A DNA stretch of 15,358 nt from the NCBI GenBank assembly GCA_029838215.1, contig JALGVI010000070.1:2215-17572 (forward strand). Direction: 5' to 3'. The translations under genes and the position numbers were made by a program. Under the pieces are notes generated by a model, which was not told where the DNA came from, did no database searches, and saw only the letters and a list, made by a program, of their open reading frames with translations. The stretch comes from Candidatus Helarchaeota archaeon (GTDB taxonomy: Archaea; Asgardarchaeota; Lokiarchaeia; Helarchaeales; RDOG01). Positions 1 through 12,573 of this stretch are shown one piece after another; position 1 is the first letter of the stretch; every line of letters starts with the position of its first letter.

Positions 1-555
1 GTCATTGAGTCTGTCTGTAAGGGATGTGGTGTCTGTGCTGCAGGATGTCCGGCTGATGCAATAACCATCAAGCACTTTACAAATCAACAAATAAATAACA
101 TGATAGATGTTGCGCTGACAAATCCCGCTTTGAAAACAGAACCAAAAATCATCGCATTTTTATGTAATTGGTGCAGCTATGCAGGTGCGGATAATGCAGG
201 AGTAAGTCGATTTCAATATTCTCCATCAGTACGCGTGATTCGGGTAATGTGTTCGGGCCGAATCAACATCTTGCATCTTCTTGAAGCATTTAAAGCTGGT
301 GCAGATGGCGTGATGGTTTTGGGTTGTCATATTGGTGACTGCCATTATATTTCCGGTAACCTGCACGCTCAAAGACGGGTAAATATGGCAAAACGTCTCG
401 TGGAGCTAGCAGGCATTAATCCCGAGCGTTTAAAATTGGAATGGGTAAGTGCTGCTGAAGGTAAAAAATTTGCTCAATTAATTAATGATTTCATCGCTGA
501 ACTTGAAGAAATGAAAAAGAATGAAAACATGTTCCTCATGCACAAACTGAAATAG
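1..555 (+). CDS. hdrA-mvhD: 3' end of an HdrA-MvhD fusion protein, 5'-truncated by the window: last HdrA ferredoxin motif plus a complete MvhD [2Fe-2S] domain
   Basis: Frame 1 is open from base 1, upstream of the ORF-track ATG at 100. It reads VIESVCKGCGVCAAGCPADAITIKHFTNQQINNMID (CxxCxxCxxxCP plus the typical HdrA C-terminal tail), then IIAFLCNWCSYAGAD...RVMCSGR...GCHIGDCHY...WVSAAEG (MvhD). TAG stop at 553-555. Confidence 0.93.
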   Translation, partial: VIESVCKGCGVCAAGCPADAITIKHFTNQQINNMIDVALTNPALKTEPKIIAFLCNWCSYAGADNAGVSRFQYSPSVRVIRVMCSGRINILHLLEAFKAGADGVMVLGCHIGDCHYISGNLHAQRRVNMAKRLVELAGINPERLKLEWVSAAEGKKFAQLINDFIAELEEMKKNENMFLMHKLK

Positions 556-4032: not shown

Positions 4033-4317
4033 ATGAGTCAAGATAAAAAGGAAGAATTGAATAAAATCATAAAAAAATTGGAAGAAACCAAAGATTCTAA
4101 AAGTTTAGAGTGGAAACGCATCGTTGAAGCCAATAAAGAAGAATTTGAGTCCATAAAATCCGCTATTAAAGAAAAACAGCAAGAATTAAAGACATTGGTA
4201 CAACGAAAAAGAGCTTTACAAATAAATAACGATGAATTTGAAGAAAGAGTCAATAAGATTCAGGATGAATTGACCGAGCTAGAATCAAAAATCCTGACCA
4301 TGAGAATGTCGTTTTGA
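4033..4317 (+). CDS. Hypothetical 94-aa Lys/Glu-rich coiled-coil protein
   Basis: Fills the gap between mvhD and the next hdrA-like gene, on the same strand, with AAGGA ~8 nt before the ATG. It has heptad-like hydrophobic spacing (e.g. FEERVNKIQDELTELESKILTM) and no Cys. Confidence 0.75.
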   Translation: MSQDKKEELNKIIKKLEETKDSKSLEWKRIVEANKEEFESIKSAIKEKQQELKTLVQRKRALQINNDEFEERVNKIQDELTELESKILTMRMSF

Positions 4318-7716: not shown

Positions 7717-7720
7717 GGAG
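7714..7720 (+). promoter_or_regulatory. Stop codon overlapping the Shine-Dalgarno site (TGAGGAG) of the 738-aa gene
   Basis: TGA 7714-7716 and GAGGAG 7715-7720, 9 nt before ATG 7730. Confidence 0.6.
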
Positions 7721-7729
7721 CAATTATCA

Positions 7730-9946
7730 ATGTTTGAATCCGAATCCCTGGAAATTCCCAAGAAGAGAAAAATCCTATACGATTTTATCTGGAAAATGAT
7801 TGAAATTCAGAAGGCAAAGGAAGTTTCCATGGCAATTTCGGATCAGGACTTGGTAGTTAAAGAATTAAATCTTTTATATTCAAAATTTGAAGATTTTGAC
7901 AATAAAATATTGAATAAATTTCAAGATTTAGCCGAAGAAAAGCTTAACGTGGCTGCACTAAAACGTTTTTTGGAAAAAATGACACCTCTTGCAACTACAA
8001 TTCCTGAAGAAGTTTCTTTATTGAATTCTGTAAGTATAATTCTAAAAGAAAAACATCAACCTCTTGAATCTGACGTGCAGAAGCCCGGTCTTTCCCAAGA
8101 TTCAAATCAAATCATCACGCGCTTACAAAAGATTGGTGGAATTTTATCTAATCTCGAAATTGATCTTGGTCGAATATCAAGCATTCAAGAAAAGCAAAGG
8201 AAAGAAATCTTGGAAGAAAATGAAGCTAAATTAGTTGAATTAAAAAGAATTAGTACTAAATTCAAGCAACTGGAATCCCAACAAGACGTAAATGCGCTTT
8301 TTAACATGCTTCAGGAAAGCAGTCGCCAGTTACGTTATCAACCGCTTTTGTATTCAATTAGTCAAATATCGCGATCCTATAAAGATGGGCGCATCTCTGC
8401 AGAAAAAGCACGAAACCTCTTCGACCTTGTCTTATATCAAAAATTCACCGAAGCACTCGTATTCAATGTTCTTCTTTTAATTGAGAAGGCATCTCCTGGA
8501 GAAATCGCAACCCTAGTGGGAATTGAAACCGATAGAGTCTTTCAAGCCCTTCTGACTCTTATTGACGATGGGAAAATAGAAGGCCGCATGGAAGATTCCA
8601 CCTATTTTCCAATAAAAAAGGAAATTCTTCTCCAAAAATCTATATCAAATTTAAAAAAGGCACTCACTTACTTAATTAAAACTTCATCAAACGAAATTGT
8701 GTCAATAATCGATGAAATAATTCGAAAAATTGATGACATTGACAAAATTTTATTGAAAATCCGCGATCTTGATGAAACACCTTTCCAAACCTCCTTACAA
8801 GAGATTAATGAAATGGTGTCATTCATTAACTTGGATCTTGGAGGAGCGTCTTCTTCCGAAAATATCATTAAATCTCGTTTAGATGGGATGATTGAAGCAA
8901 TAAAACTGGGTCGTCTTTACAAGATAATAGAAAAAGAGCAAATTTTGATTGAAGAAGAGAAAGTTCCCGAGAATCTGGTCGAAAGGATTACCGATGCTTC
9001 CATCATTACAGATTACAAGCGCGGCTTGATATTAAGTACTTTACGTACTAAAGGTGCTCTTTCTCTCCCAGAGTTAACAAATATTACGGGATTACCGTCG
9101 AATGAATTATTCATTGAGCTCCAAGACCTAAAAAATGCCGACTTGATAACCATTGTTGGCGAACGTGAAGGCTATCATCTTTTTGACATTCCCCGCATCC
9201 TGACGCCAGATGAACTATTCGTAGATGACTTCATTGAAAAAAGAATGAATGCGTATGATCTCATTTTAAATTTGGAAGAACAAGGAAAAAATATCGAGAG
9301 AAACTTTCATTCGATAAAAAACACTTTAACCTCTTTACGAATACTGGTTAAATCATTCGATTCTCTTTCATTTGATGGGCTTGAGTTCGGAAATCTATTT
9401 GCTGAATCTTTTCTGAACGTCATTTCGGAAGTTCAAGAAACATTTTCAAAAATTAAGACTACTGTTAAGGTTGGAAAGATAGAAATCGATTTTGATAAAC
9501 TCGTCCCCATTCCAATTCCACAAACTGAGGATGAGTTCGCACATCTTATCGAGCCAACAGAATTAATGGGCTTCGGGACTATCGAATGCAATGAAAGTTT
9601 ATGTCTTACGTGTGGAAAGTGTGAGTCCGTATGCCCTGAAGGGGCTGCAATCTTGAAACAGGAATGGAATATTCCTCTCTTTTTCAAGCTTACTGATGAA
9701 GAATTAAAAGCATTACCTGAAAATAGACGAATGTTAATTCAATCCTTGAGAAATATTGCGAAAAAAACGCCAGAACGCCCGATTCTGATTCCTCGTAATG
9801 CAAAGGGTTATGGGCGTGCAACTTTTAATCCCATGAAATGCATTGCGTGTAAGGAATGCGTCGATAAATGTCCAATAGAAGCGATCACGTTTGAAGAAAT
9901 ATGGAATTTTCCTGAAGTCTTGAAAGGAATCTTAAAATTGACGTAA
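7730..9946 (+). CDS. Unrecognised 738-aa protein: helical/coiled-coil regions, two putative winged-helix domains and a C-terminal 2x[4Fe-4S] ferredoxin domain
   Basis: Long ORF with GAGGAG RBS at 7715-7720. CLTCGKCESVCP at 9602-9637 and CIACKECVDKCP at 9839-9874. HTH-like segments at ~8447-8611 (SPGEIATLVGIETDRVFQALLTLIDDGKIEG) and ~9002-9187 (LSLPELTNITGLPSNELFIELQDLKNADLI). The CDS is confident; the wHTH calls are by eye. Confidence 0.85.
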   Translation: MFESESLEIPKKRKILYDFIWKMIEIQKAKEVSMAISDQDLVVKELNLLYSKFEDFDNKILNKFQDLAEEKLNVAALKRFLEKMTPLATTIPEEVSLLNSVSIILKEKHQPLESDVQKPGLSQDSNQIITRLQKIGGILSNLEIDLGRISSIQEKQRKEILEENEAKLVELKRISTKFKQLESQQDVNALFNMLQESSRQLRYQPLLYSISQISRSYKDGRISAEKARNLFDLVLYQKFTEALVFNVLLLIEKASPGEIATLVGIETDRVFQALLTLIDDGKIEGRMEDSTYFPIKKEILLQKSISNLKKALTYLIKTSSNEIVSIIDEIIRKIDDIDKILLKIRDLDETPFQTSLQEINEMVSFINLDLGGASSSENIIKSRLDGMIEAIKLGRLYKIIEKEQILIEEEKVPENLVERITDASIITDYKRGLILSTLRTKGALSLPELTNITGLPSNELFIELQDLKNADLITIVGEREGYHLFDIPRILTPDELFVDDFIEKRMNAYDLILNLEEQGKNIERNFHSIKNTLTSLRILVKSFDSLSFDGLEFGNLFAESFLNVISEVQETFSKIKTTVKVGKIEIDFDKLVPIPIPQTEDEFAHLIEPTELMGFGTIECNESLCLTCGKCESVCPEGAAILKQEWNIPLFFKLTDEELKALPENRRMLIQSLRNIAKKTPERPILIPRNAKGYGRATFNPMKCIACKECVDKCPIEAITFEEIWNFPEVLKGILKLT

Positions 9947-9958
9947 TTGGTGATGAAA

Positions 9959-10507
9959 ATGAATGAATTTAATACAACTCCGGAATTTACCGAGTGCTTG
10001 ACTGAAGAAGATTTAGATCCGAATTTCAAGCACGAAATTGCGGCAATGCCTGATGGAAAAACCATCCTTGCCTGTTATCAATGTGGTACCTGCTCTTCAA
10101 GTTGTCCAATAACGTGTGTTGCCGAATTTGCACCCAGTCAAATCATTCGAATGGCTCTACTCGGCTTAAAGAAACCACTTTTAGAGTCTGAAGCAATAAA
10201 CTCCGTTTGGCTTTGTGCTACTTGCGGGACTTGTATTGAGAGATGTCCTCAAGGCGTAGAAGTCACTAACGTGCTTCATGCCATTAAAAACTACATCTTC
10301 AAGACATTACAGAAAATTCCAAAAGGACTCAAGGTTGTTTCCGAGACCATTGTAGAACTAGGACGATCCATCGAGATATCTGACTTTCAAGAAGATGAGC
10401 GAGACGATCTTGACCTACCTGCAGTTCCCGAAGCTGATGTCGAAAGTGTTAGAACCATATTAAAAGATACTGAGATAGGAAAGAGATTCATGGAAAAGGA
10501 GGAATGA
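9959..10507 (+). CDS. hdrC: Heterodisulfide reductase subunit C (2x[4Fe-4S])
   Basis: CYQCGTCSSSCP..P..IIRMA.LG....VWLCATCGTCIERCPQGV. The ORF track starts at TTG 9947, but GGTGA at 9949-9953 favours ATG 9959. Confidence 0.95.
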   Translation: MNEFNTTPEFTECLTEEDLDPNFKHEIAAMPDGKTILACYQCGTCSSSCPITCVAEFAPSQIIRMALLGLKKPLLESEAINSVWLCATCGTCIERCPQGVEVTNVLHAIKNYIFKTLQKIPKGLKVVSETIVELGRSIEISDFQEDERDDLDLPAVPEADVESVRTILKDTEIGKRFMEKEE

Positions 10508-10510
10508 TGT

Positions 10511-11392
10511 ATGGATTATGCTTATTTTTTGGGATGTACCGTTCCTGCAAGGACCAATCAATACGATGCAGCTACCCGGAAAGTCGCCGAAAAACTAGGA
10601 ATTGGATTAAATGACATTGAAGGTGCTAGCTGTTGCGGTTTAAATTTCAAGTATCTTGATCGTAAAGCATGGCTTCTGATGGCTGCTAGAAACATCGTGC
10701 TTGCAGAACGAATGAACATGAACATCATGACCTTATGTAATGGATGCTACGAAACATTGAAGGAAGTGAATCACGAGCTTAAGTTACACGATTCTCTACG
10801 CCAAGACATGAACAAGACATTACAAAAAGTGGGTTTGGAATTTCAAGGAACCATCGAGATCCTCCATCTGGTTGACGTTCTTGCCGGGCTGGACAAAGAA
10901 CTTATCCGTTCCAAGTTCTCAATTCCTTTAAAAGGTTTGAAAGTAGCCGTTCATTATGGATGTCACCTATTAAAGCCATCTAGAATAATTCAATTCGACG
11001 ACCCCGAGAATCCTCATGTCCTAGACGACCTCGTGGAGCTTACAGGTGCAAAAGCTGTTGCGTGGGATGATAAACTCACCTGTTGTGGTGGACCTCTTCT
11101 TTCCGTGAATGAAGACCTATCCGTCCGACTGGCTCTCGATAAGTTTAAAGGTGCCCATTCCGCCGGAGCCGACATCCTGCTAAGCGTTTGTCCTTTTTGC
11201 ACGATTCAATTTGATCTCATTCAATTAAAAGTCCAAGAGAAATATAATTTGGATTTCGAAATACCCGTGATCTTCTTGCCTCAACTTTATGGGCTTGCAA
11301 TGGGAATGGACCCTGACGAATTAGGTGTTGAGCTACATCGGATTCCACTGGAGGATGTTATCGAATCGATTCAGGAAGCTACTACCGAATAG
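10511..11392 (+). CDS. hdrB: Heterodisulfide reductase subunit B (two CCG domains)
   Basis: YFLGC..SCCG..LCNGCY and VAVHYGCH..TCCGG..VCPFC: both five-Cys CCG domains are complete. C-terminal PV..LPQL.GLAMG tail. GGAGGA RBS at 10498-10503. Confidence 0.96.
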   Translation: MDYAYFLGCTVPARTNQYDAATRKVAEKLGIGLNDIEGASCCGLNFKYLDRKAWLLMAARNIVLAERMNMNIMTLCNGCYETLKEVNHELKLHDSLRQDMNKTLQKVGLEFQGTIEILHLVDVLAGLDKELIRSKFSIPLKGLKVAVHYGCHLLKPSRIIQFDDPENPHVLDDLVELTGAKAVAWDDKLTCCGGPLLSVNEDLSVRLALDKFKGAHSAGADILLSVCPFCTIQFDLIQLKVQEKYNLDFEIPVIFLPQLYGLAMGMDPDELGVELHRIPLEDVIESIQEATTE

Positions 11393-11406: not shown

Positions 11407-12573
11407 CTATATTTTTCCTAATGTTGACTCGTAGAGTTGCCGTTCTTCTTTTATGGCTTTGTTTTGGATTTCTAAACGAATACTACATTCCTTTGCTTCA
11501 ATAACTTGCTTGTAAAATTTCTCTTCCAAGTCTTGCAATTTCTCTGTTACTTGCCTCGTGGATTTAGACAAGGCCATTTCATGTTGCCACCATAATTTGT
11601 TTGACTCCTGCCTTGCTGAAGCCGAAAAAAATTCTGCCAACTCCGTTGTCTCAAATACGAACGGTTTAAAGAAGCTTGCACAAGGATGCGGCGTTCCTGT
11701 AAACCAATGAACATGACACGGATCTTCTGCTTTAATGAGAGAAACTTGAGATGCAGTCGATCGAAAGCCGCCGTGCATGCAAATTCCTGCTTCGTGGTCT
11801 CTTAATATGGACATCATGGTTTTAGGCGTGATTTTGCCAAATCCTGTCTTTAAAAGATGATATCCACGACCTTCTCGACAGAACTGGCTGTCATAGTCAG
11901 CCACTTCCCCTGATGCGAAGCACTTTGCAAAGTTGAAATCCGAATCATCCCTACAATAACCCTTTTCAACGGCATATTCCACGATGCCATCTGCTTTTCG
12001 GTCGAACTGAGTCTCAATGGACACGGCATTGGAAATATTACGCACGCCATCCCTAACCCGCTCGGCTACCCACCATTTATCGGCCGTTTCCAAGATCCAT
12101 GCTTCTCTAGCATCTGCAATTAGAAAGGAATTATGATACGTGAAAGAAGAATCACCCTCGGAGCAACCGCCACCTTGCCCGTGAGCTTCTAATAATGAAA
12201 CAATTACTTCCAGTGCCTTCTCTGCTGTTTCTCCACGCTCAAGTCCTAATCGAAGGAGATCCATGCCCAAAAGTGCTGTTGGACCATCCGGTTCTCTCGT
12301 CCAAATGGCCTCATTTCCAATCACGACACCTTTTTCATTTGCTCCCATTTCGCCACCAAACATCCATGCCGGTTGTGATAAAAAAATGGCAAGAGTCTTG
12401 CTTGCTTGGGGGATTTCAATATAGGTACATTTAACGGTTGCGTCTCGTGAATACTCCCTTGATGGATAATATTGAATGTTTTGAACTTCGTTATAAGGTC
12501 GGTCGCTATTCTTCCCAAATACCGTGGCACCATCGGGGGTTGCAGATCCCAAAGCCACGAAAGTATCGCACAA
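11407..12573 (-). CDS. Secernin-like C69-family Ntn-hydrolase (dipeptidase-like)
   Basis: TTG start followed by CDTFVA (N-terminal nucleophile Cys), GKNSDRP, CTYIEIPQ, EMGANE.GV.IGNEA, LLGMDL.RLGLER, GQGG.C, YHNSFLIAD, FTGTP.P..S.FKPF. AGGAG RBS at 12583-12587 (minus strand). Confidence 0.9.
   Translation of the reverse strand: MCDTFVALGSATPDGATVFGKNSDRPYNEVQNIQYYPSREYSRDATVKCTYIEIPQASKTLAIFLSQPAWMFGGEMGANEKGVVIGNEAIWTREPDGPTALLGMDLLRLGLERGETAEKALEVIVSLLEAHGQGGGCSEGDSSFTYHNSFLIADAREAWILETADKWWVAERVRDGVRNISNAVSIETQFDRKADGIVEYAVEKGYCRDDSDFNFAKCFASGEVADYDSQFCREGRGYHLLKTGFGKITPKTMMSILRDHEAGICMHGGFRSTASQVSLIKAEDPCHVHWFTGTPHPCASFFKPFVFETTELAEFFSASARQESNKLWWQHEMALSKSTRQVTEKLQDLEEKFYKQVIEAKECSIRLEIQNKAIKEERQLYESTLGKI

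Follow-up and report, generated by a model that had tools for sequence, protein, structure and literature searches.

The DNA analyzed here (15,358 nt; the window, meaning this whole stretch) stems from a Candidatus Helarchaeota archaeon (GenBank assembly GCA_029838215.1, contig JALGVI010000070.1, positions 2,215 to 17,572 of the forward strand) and carries an Hdr supercluster of nine genes, all in one orientation. We focused on the gene between an HdrA-MvhD fusion gene and hdrC, which encodes a protein of 738 amino acids (aa) with two predicted winged helices and a C-terminal ferredoxin domain. It is separated from its neighbours by 13 nt upstream and 0 nt downstream and hence sits directly upstream of hdrCB, as a preliminary description made from the letters of the sequence had stated. 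Genome and profile searches place the open reading frame (ORF) in a conserved family, showing that it is not a chance ORF; Rfam detected no RNA family within the window. The features are collected in Table 1.

Table 1. Features of the 738-aa protein gene, of its neighbours in the window and of related ORFs at other loci.
Feature	Position	Strand	Remarks
738-aa winged-helix/ferredoxin protein gene	7730-9946, stop included	+	ATG start; ORF call
GGAG, Shine-Dalgarno-like	7717-7720	+	read from the sequence; 9 nt 5' of the ATG, within the 13-nt spacer and abutting the HdrA-MvhD stop codon
N-terminal helical region, aa 1-205	7730-8344	+	PxKRK-L motif conserved at aa 10-16; AlphaFold2 and alignment
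Module 1, aa 206-410	8345-8959	+	long helix, winged helix (core aa 252-296 = 8483-8617), helical tail
Module 2, aa 411-590	8960-9499	+	repeat of module 1, with the core of its winged helix at aa 442-488 = 9053-9193
C-terminal 2x[4Fe-4S] ferredoxin domain, aa 591-738	9500-9943	+	two repeated half-units
Cys motif 1	9602-9634	+	ferredoxin domain
Inter-motif helix and loop, aa 663-694	9716-9811	+	predicted seat on the MvhD domain of the upstream protein (complex model)
Cys motif 2	9839-9874	+	ferredoxin domain
HdrA-MvhD fusion, tail only	1-555	+	Pfam/ORF
Double HdrA, 1010 aa	559-3591	+	Pfam/ORF
MvhD, 138 aa	3601-4017	+	Pfam/ORF
Coiled-coil protein, 94 aa, Cys-free	4033-4317	+	candidate partner of the helical extension
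HdrA half-subunit, 433 aa	4314-5615	+	part of the triplet conserved across Asgard classes
HdrA-MvhD fusion, 696 aa	5626-7716	+	predicted docking partner; contacts aa 497-507, 541-545 (C-terminal ferredoxin), 614-664 (MvhD domain)
hdrC	9947-10507	+	first base right after the stop of the 738-aa gene
hdrB	10511-11392	+	two CCG domains
Coiled-coil ORF in other clusters	L017 5983-6276; L018 5455-5763; L019 5039-5344; L020 5576-5878		
Small helical ORF 5' of hdrC	L037 3280-3573; L041 3240-3533; L043 16363-16650; L048 3230-3508		
Swapped variant P0015/P0056	L030 8001-10919		

The AlphaFold2 model of the whole protein, built from an alignment of 16 family sequences, is nearly all helical (mean predicted local distance difference test, pLDDT, 76.8; predicted template modelling score, pTM, 0.40). 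After a helical N-terminus (residues 11-220) come two units, each made of a long helix, a winged helix and a tail: in the first, the helix and winged helix span 224-296 and the tail reaches about 408, in the second they span 414-488 and the tail reaches about 576. The ferredoxin domain (590-738) forms the end. Both winged units are modelled as a helix-turn-helix with a β-hairpin (H256-263/H267-279/E283-286/E291-294 and H446-453/H457-469/E474-479/E482-486). Cysteines are present at positions 620, 625, 628, 631, 635, 704, 707, 710 and 714 only, leaving residues 1-619 free of cysteine. The preliminary description had foreseen about 610 Cys-free and mostly helical residues, two helix-turn-helix-like segments and a 2x[4Fe-4S] end. 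All of this is borne out. The segments it named (aa 240-294 at 8447-8611, aa 425-486 at 9002-9187) span exactly these two winged units, for which the structure prediction indeed returns the expected fold. Pfam reports only Fer4-type domains above threshold, with a sub-threshold TrmB winged helix at residues 240-288. For the N-terminal helical region, no relatives beyond the family were detectable. Searches of the ESM Atlas gave no usable match by features for residues 1-600, and by shape only generic IclR/DeoR-type regulators at a template modelling (TM) score of ~0.4. No characterised family matched the protein over its full length, in line with the earlier view that it is not a described Hdr subunit, and our literature searches did not find a description of this protein family.

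The C-terminal domain contains two CxxCxxCxxxCP motifs (Cys 625/628/631/635 and 704/707/710/714), which are 68 residues apart. With 39.9 bits for Fer4 (PF00037, cut-off 21.1) and 40.5 bits for Fer4_7 (PF12838, cut-off 27), it classifies as a dicluster ferredoxin; its eight ligand cysteines are invariant in the 16 members, C620 is not conserved, and the two halves form an internal repeat (profile comparison, probability 99.2%). FlpD (PF02662), which the neighbouring genes possess, gave no match in the 738-aa protein. Residues 609-738 are homologous to stand-alone ferredoxins of 150-170 aa (hhalign probability 100%, E 1.7e-39, 129 columns), and both share a unit of helix, proline-rich loop, GFG and CxxCxxCxxxC, which occurs twice. 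This short form is encoded directly behind an HdrA-half (~435 aa) and an HdrA-MvhD protein (~700 aa), and it occupies that slot on contig G000:C92 of the source genome, in three other Helarchaeales, and on contigs labelled Baldrarchaeia and Odinarchaeia. The source genome holds exactly one short and one long copy. Across the Asgard archaea the short form is spread more widely than the long one, being found in Loki-, Odin-, Baldr-, Heimdall- and Hodarchaeota as named by the sources. Because the short form fills the same slot, the conserved core can be recognized as the ferredoxin subunit of a triplet of HdrA-half, HdrA-MvhD and ferredoxin. Judged by homology, the 738-aa protein is that subunit plus an extension of 590 residues. 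We also considered the extension as an insertion, with the PxKRK-L helix as the displaced first helix of the short ferredoxin; this appeared in an alternative hhalign alignment only (P 0.011, probability 3.9%), which is suggestive and not significant, and we set it aside.

A word-indexed protein search returned the query alone, and the relatives came from exhaustive HMMER and genome searches. Among 1.8 billion representatives, HMMER gave 52 matches, about 12 of which are full-length (25-33% identity); the remaining ones are fragments and ~160-aa ferredoxins that align to the C-terminus only. Each of the six further genomes of this order encodes a full-length relative (7/7 Helarchaeales with the window), including the metagenome-assembled genome LW55_61, a family-mate of the window, as well as Hel_GB_A and Hel_GB_B, all labelled Candidatus Helarchaeota by the sources. 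The search of 34 genomes from two further families of the class returned none. A reading of the long form as Helarchaeales-specific had to be rejected, however, since searching with a winged-helix module profile revealed ORFs of 750-790 aa with two modules in all 59 sampled genomes of another family of the phylum, whose source label is Thorarchaeota. The long form is common to Helarchaeales and this one Thorarchaeota-type family. In the Lokiarchaeales genomes searched, the same profile met no ORF of long-form length, just the tails of long MvhD proteins and other weak winged-helix matches.

In all seven Helarchaeales loci the long-form gene is flanked by HdrA-MvhD and hdrC/hdrB, the order being HdrA-MvhD, double HdrA, MvhD, a ~95-aa coiled coil, HdrA-half, HdrA-MvhD, long form, hdrC and hdrB (the ORF filter called MvhD in 3/7 loci and a matching coiled-coil ORF in 5/7). 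The only locus of this group in which the long form and hdrC are not adjacent is that of Hel_GB_B, where an ORF of 129 aa lies between them (L019 12023-12412). In the Thorarchaeota-type genomes, 11 of the 12 sampled loci show the order hdrC, hdrB, HdrA-half, HdrA-MvhD, long form and acyl-CoA dehydrogenase, with the long form right behind HdrA-half and HdrA-MvhD and the frames overlapping or nearly so. At the twelfth (L046), ORF calling gave no hdr genes beside the long form, only the downstream acyl-CoA dehydrogenase. The linkage to hdr genes, whose absence the preliminary description had named as a refutation of its view, holds for all 26 loci inspected except L046.

Some further observations concern these loci. 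The acyl-CoA dehydrogenase gene (~400 aa) stands directly 3' of the long form in 12/12 Thorarchaeota-type genomes, which belong to different genera (L037-L048), and also at L030 (10996-12195). A gap of 49-163 nt precedes it, so it possibly forms its own transcription unit; the enzyme is a candidate partner, or else simply a neighbour in a conserved gene order. Just 5' of hdrC, five Thorarchaeota-type loci (L037, L038, L041, L043 and L048) carry a conserved, Cys-free helical ORF of 92-103 aa, which BLAST found to be unrelated to the 94-aa protein of the Helarchaeales. The latter, a Cys-free coiled coil of ~95-102 aa, is encoded after MvhD and before the HdrA half-subunit, both in the window and in 4/6 other long-form Helarchaeales clusters. 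No matching ORF was called in the remaining two (L015 and L016), and BLAST showed no counterpart in the Thorarchaeota-type operons. One contig with the full nine-gene cluster of Helarchaeales type (L017, DATKTP010000091.1, identical to contig C91 of G003, a genome assigned to the order of the window) is titled 'Candidatus Deferrimicrobium sp.', and its title or bin looks wrong.

The winged-helix modules are an internal duplication, as hhalign aligns residues 223-385 with residues 413-587 (probability 98.5%, E 1.6e-15), and the models confirm the predicted winged-helix fold. Module 1, modelled alone (pLDDT 72.6), was compared with representative structures, and generic winged helices were returned at Z 8-10.3 with a root mean square deviation of ~2 Å over ~60 residues. 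These matches comprise DNA-binding proteins (Z-alpha, IclR, ROK, NsrR) and protein-binding ones (cullin WHB, ESCRT-II, ScpB, Rpa2), so that from the fold by itself one cannot tell a DNA-binding from a protein-docking role. The assignment of segment 1 to the PCI type, made in the preliminary description, finds no support. PCI (PF01399) gave no match in the 738-aa protein; among the 16 members, sub-threshold Pfam matches were obtained to TrmB in 9/16, HTH_9 (RPC82-type) in 8/16, HTH_24 in 4/16, MarR in 3/16 and PCI in 2/16 (best E 0.0011), and the profile and Foldseek neighbours, given below, are mostly regulators of the MarR, TrmBL2/TrmB, AspA and MntR types. No PCI protein is present among the top 50 Foldseek matches of isolated module 1 or the structural-alignment matches listed, an absence that is no evidence against a PCI fold. 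The whole model gave weak Foldseek matches to proteasome-lid subunits (E 0.016-0.1, TM ~0.1).

The resemblance that had been noted between segment 2 and the winged-helix extensions of long MvhD proteins, in turn, holds. The module profile matches FlpD/MvhD proteins of 253-287 aa in Lokiarchaeales HdrA clusters (HMMER E 6.4e-11, 9.5e-11 and 1.2e-9), and these ORFs consist of FlpD with a C-terminal winged-helix tail (hhalign against the tail: probability 94.5%, E 7e-8). Stand-alone proteins of ~110-135 aa match the module as well (E 1e-15 to 4e-18; L052 1119-1493 and G068:C119:6700-6966, with similar ORFs in families f19 and f22). One such gene is located right behind an MvhD gene and ahead of an HdrA gene, showing that the module also exists unfused in Hdr clusters.

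Both parts of the protein also appear in other combinations. The ferredoxin module is fused behind MvhD (P0017, 294 aa) and behind HdrA (P0047), while P0016 (449 aa) combines one winged-helix module with the ferredoxin domain. In the Thorarchaeota-labelled P0015 (972 aa), module 1 is swapped for a flavoprotein domain of Fer4_20 and Pyr_redox_2 (GltD/NfnB-like). Still in place are the family N-terminus, at 34% identity, module 2, and the ferredoxin domain, at 63% identity. ORFs of 972-998 aa were found in six sampled genomes (G134, G171, G175, G188, G194 and G206). The same module-profile search gave an ORF of 1114 aa in G191. That one and the same position accommodates a winged helix in some members and an NAD(P)H-type flavoprotein in others is more in keeping with an arm for redox partners than with a regulator.

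We then modelled the ferredoxin domain (residues 585-738, alignment of 14) together with the 696-aa HdrA-MvhD protein (alignment of 11). The interaction prediction score from aligned errors (ipSAE) reached 0.88, 0.87 and 0.88 in three runs, and the best of three controls gave 0.00. The ipSAE mark is reached by 58 of 80 solved complexes and by 2 of 110 mismatched pairs, counts that are rough, own alignments having been used. At least 95% of the contacts recur from run to run, with a partner pLDDT of at least 74. In the model, Cys625-631 and the region of Cys714 face Cys498-508 and the region of Cys542 of the C-terminal ferredoxin of HdrA, while helix 663-694 lies on the MvhD domain (residues 614-664). 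The model supports binding of the ferredoxin domain to MvhD and to the C-terminal ferredoxin of the upstream HdrA-MvhD protein.

From the synteny, the short ferredoxin in the same slot, the fusions to MvhD and HdrA, and the complex model that passes its controls, we derive the reading that the protein is an electron-wiring subunit. To be precise, we propose, with a probability of roughly 0.7, that it is an undescribed Fe-S adaptor of an Asgard HdrA/MvhD-type complex, with a duplicated winged-helix arm that holds a partner. The preliminary description had offered such a scaffold, wiring an extra ferredoxin into the complex, as one of two possibilities, and it fits all the data gathered here. 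The docking geometry is a prediction of the model, while we infer that electrons are transferred, in which direction they flow, and which partner the winged helices hold. Several points weigh against this proposal. With a pTM of 0.40 the individual domains are credible, their mutual arrangement is not. The winged helices are nearest, by sequence and fold, to true DNA-binding regulators (AspA, TrmB, MarR). The docking rests on the model's own confidence, and because ferredoxin-on-ferredoxin packing is common in solved structures, the passing score may partly reflect memory or likeness.

The second possibility offered at the outset was an Fe-S redox-sensing DNA-binding regulator, whose ferredoxin domain would sense the redox state or the ferredoxin pool and whose two winged helices would bind the operon promoter and tune hdr expression. 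Indeed, the two-module profile matches AspA (E 5e-6) and TrmB (3qph, E 2.2e-5) among solved structures, and the best Foldseek matches of isolated module 1 are MarR, TrmBL2, AspA and MntR regulators (E from 3e-3, probability 0.97-1.0; neither module 1 nor the whole model gave a PDB match at E <= 1e-3). Fe-S winged-helix regulators do exist, and NsrR is among the structural matches (Z 9.1). The likeness to TrmB (PF01978), with 17.2 bits against a gathering score of 25.6, is nevertheless one of fold class and not of membership. In Rrf2/NsrR-type regulators, which are small proteins with a single winged helix, the ligands are situated in the protein's own dimerisation region by the winged helix. 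Here, all cysteines lie more than 130 residues past the second winged helix in a separate dicluster domain of the canonical electron-transfer fold, so that the match to NsrR is on the level of the fold only. The surface electrostatics point the same way, if weakly: averaged over the family, the cores of the winged helices carry a neutral to acidic charge (mean net -1.5 and -1.2, with -2.4 for wing 2), the recognition helices keep no conserved basic residue, and the members share no basic patch in these helices or in the wings, which judged from these sequences argues against DNA binding to a small degree. Moreover, the gene is embedded in the operon by its tight spacers, a 160-aa ferredoxin without any winged helix can fill the same slot, a flavoprotein domain can stand in for module 1, and the same module is fused to the redox adaptor MvhD, while the winged helix of BamF, discussed below, is a protein interface in a solved complex. 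We consider a regulator improbable.

A protein with a dual role, an Fe-S subunit bound to the complex whose winged helices also bind nucleic acid for mRNA or operon autoregulation or for tethering, would reconcile the AspA/TrmB/MarR-type similarities with the evidence for complex association. It is less parsimonious than docking alone and is confronted with the same missing basic patch; operator-like repeats, at which no search was aimed, were not seen either. We rate its chances slightly lower still. Of a similarly small likelihood is a transient assembly or maturation factor, acting as an Fe-S insertion scaffold or ordering several HdrA modules, instead of a stable subunit. The long, coiled-coil-like helical extension, the small coiled-coil gene that co-occurs in the Helarchaeales clusters and the many HdrA and MvhD modules to be assembled would be in keeping with this role. 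However, the eight invariant ligands and the predicted cluster-to-cluster apposition with HdrA suggest a working wire, and several Asgard classes keep the short form as a plain ferredoxin. A soluble ferredoxin-like carrier, co-transcribed by chance and not docking on the Hdr complex, is the least probable of all. Fer4 domains are ubiquitous and free ferredoxins occur in many operons, but the gene order is fixed over two classes and ~70 genomes, fusions join the module to MvhD as well as to HdrA, the complex model passes against null controls, and an extension of 590 residues is unexpected for a diffusible carrier.

How might the proposed wiring subunit work? Hdr-type complexes are central to the splitting and merging of electron pairs in anaerobic archaea, and in methanogens a hydrogenase or a formate dehydrogenase feeds in at the port formed by MvhD and the C-terminal ferredoxin of HdrA. 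The complex encoded here would be of the kind that performs flavin-based electron bifurcation or confurcation. Its conserved working part would be the C-terminal 2x[4Fe-4S] domain, plugged into this port of a heterodimeric HdrA module, where it would probably relay single electrons between the port and a partner. The N-terminal extension is a lineage-specific helical arm, with the two TrmB/MarR-type winged helices as putative protein-docking modules that would hold a donor or acceptor enzyme, or the second HdrA module of the nine-gene supercluster, near the clusters. Taking this further, one may speculate about Asgard-specific modular bifurcating supercomplexes, in which a ferredoxin plug on the MvhD port, a long arm and two winged-helix docking sites recruit lineage-specific redox partners. 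In the alkane-oxidising Helarchaeales the partner would be a second HdrA/MvhD module; some Thorarchaeota-type genomes would have an NAD(P)H flavoprotein built into the chain, and others possibly the acyl-CoA dehydrogenase that is always adjacent. This joint picture is tentative, and we regard it as possible but rather doubtful. If it were true, the 738-aa protein would be a missing electron entry or exit port in the energy metabolism of the Asgard archaea, the closest known relatives of the eukaryotes. To our knowledge, nobody knows what feeds or drains the hydrogenase-less Asgard Hdr complexes, and a conserved subunit whose predicted seat is the donor port, made up of MvhD and the C-terminal ferredoxin of HdrA, would give a concrete handle on the partner enzyme.

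Regarding the metabolic context, the source genome (94% complete) contains McrB (PF02241, E 1e-68, G000:C27:62309-63067), and the idea that the organism has no MCR-type enzyme was therefore dropped. The C-terminal domain of McrA (PF02249) was not detected in this genome, perhaps because its gene lies in an unassembled part or diverges too far from the model; McrA is present in 5/5 other Helarchaeales genomes searched. Given McrA in the relatives and McrB here, HdrBC may serve the recycling of CoM-S-S-CoB, as proposed for the phylum in the study of Helarchaeota alkane oxidation, in which the electron sink is stated as unknown (PMC6478937). The source genome has a second Hdr supercluster on the contig that carries the short form (G000:C92; L025 4754-15957), composed of a 435-aa HdrA half, a 715-aa HdrA-MvhD, a 152-aa ferredoxin, hdrC, hdrB, a 662-aa HdrA and a 151-aa MvhD. 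ORFs of 457, 165 and 275 aa follow, and the upstream neighbour is a Cys-free, highly charged ORF of 240 aa. In the window, a convergent gene beyond hdrB (11407-12573, minus strand) closes the operon; C69 dipeptidase and C45 acyltransferase models match it weakly (E 4e-8 and 3e-7, far under the cut-offs).

Among the closest known systems is the short ferredoxin of Asgard Hdr clusters, annotated only as '4Fe-4S binding protein', which is devoid of the 590-aa helical and winged-helix extension. Polyferredoxins of methanogen supercomplexes reportedly attach to HdrA at its inserted ferredoxin domain, the low-potential exit. The polyferredoxins MvhB and FwdF, which wire Hdr to Fmd in these supercomplexes (PDB 5t5i, 7bkb, 9sw6), resemble our protein as extra Fe-S wires on Hdr-type complexes and by local Fer4 matches, but they contain 6-12 clusters and no winged helices, whereas the 738-aa protein is predicted on the MvhD side. 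With NuoI/HycF (TYKY-type) it shares the dicluster fold and a conserved proline-rich stretch ahead of the Cys motif, and the best PDB sequence match is HycF (7z0s_F, E 1e-11). It is nevertheless no member of these families, as TIGR01971 gave 31.1 bits against 113 and NF009053 40.1 against 204, in local, repeat-wise stretches only, and the membrane-arm context is lacking. The TrmB, AspA and MarR regulators are alike in the fold and the weak sequence similarity of each module, including the long helix that follows the wing in TrmB, but here the modules stand in tandem within an Fe-S protein and expose neutral to acidic surfaces. The long MvhD proteins of Lokiarchaeales possess a homologous winged-helix module, as a C-terminal tail of ~110 aa, and are likewise encoded within HdrA clusters. 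Unlike them, the 738-aa protein has no FlpD/MvhD domain, carries the module twice with helical tails and adds the dicluster ferredoxin. The heterodimer logic of tandem and fused HdrA genes, set out for anaerobic methanotrophic (ANME) archaea in PMC9012536, recurs in the cluster described here, and the passages of that article surfaced by text searches contain no such winged-helix/ferredoxin subunit.

The closest described arrangement, by analogy, is that of BamI with the winged helix of BamF. In a cryo-electron microscopy preprint on the class II benzoyl-CoA reductase of Geobacter metallireducens, the MvhD-like BamF has a winged helix-turn-helix that contacts the Fe-S subunit BamI (bioRxiv 10.64898/2026.04.10.717634). 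As the preprint describes it, an Fe-S subunit stands beside an MvhD-type adaptor there and passes electrons to a flavoprotein of HdrA type through the ferredoxin-like domain at its C-terminus. The contacts predicted for the 738-aa protein likewise involve MvhD and the C-terminal ferredoxin of HdrA. In both cases a winged helix-turn-helix would be a protein-protein interface within the complex. The two differ in that BamF and BamI are separate proteins, whereas two duplicated winged helices and the ferredoxin are placed on one chain here, and in that the operon described here has no NuoEFG-like input module. If the proposed docking role holds, the protein would be the second case, after BamF, in which a 'DNA-binding' winged helix is reused as a docking element in a redox machine.

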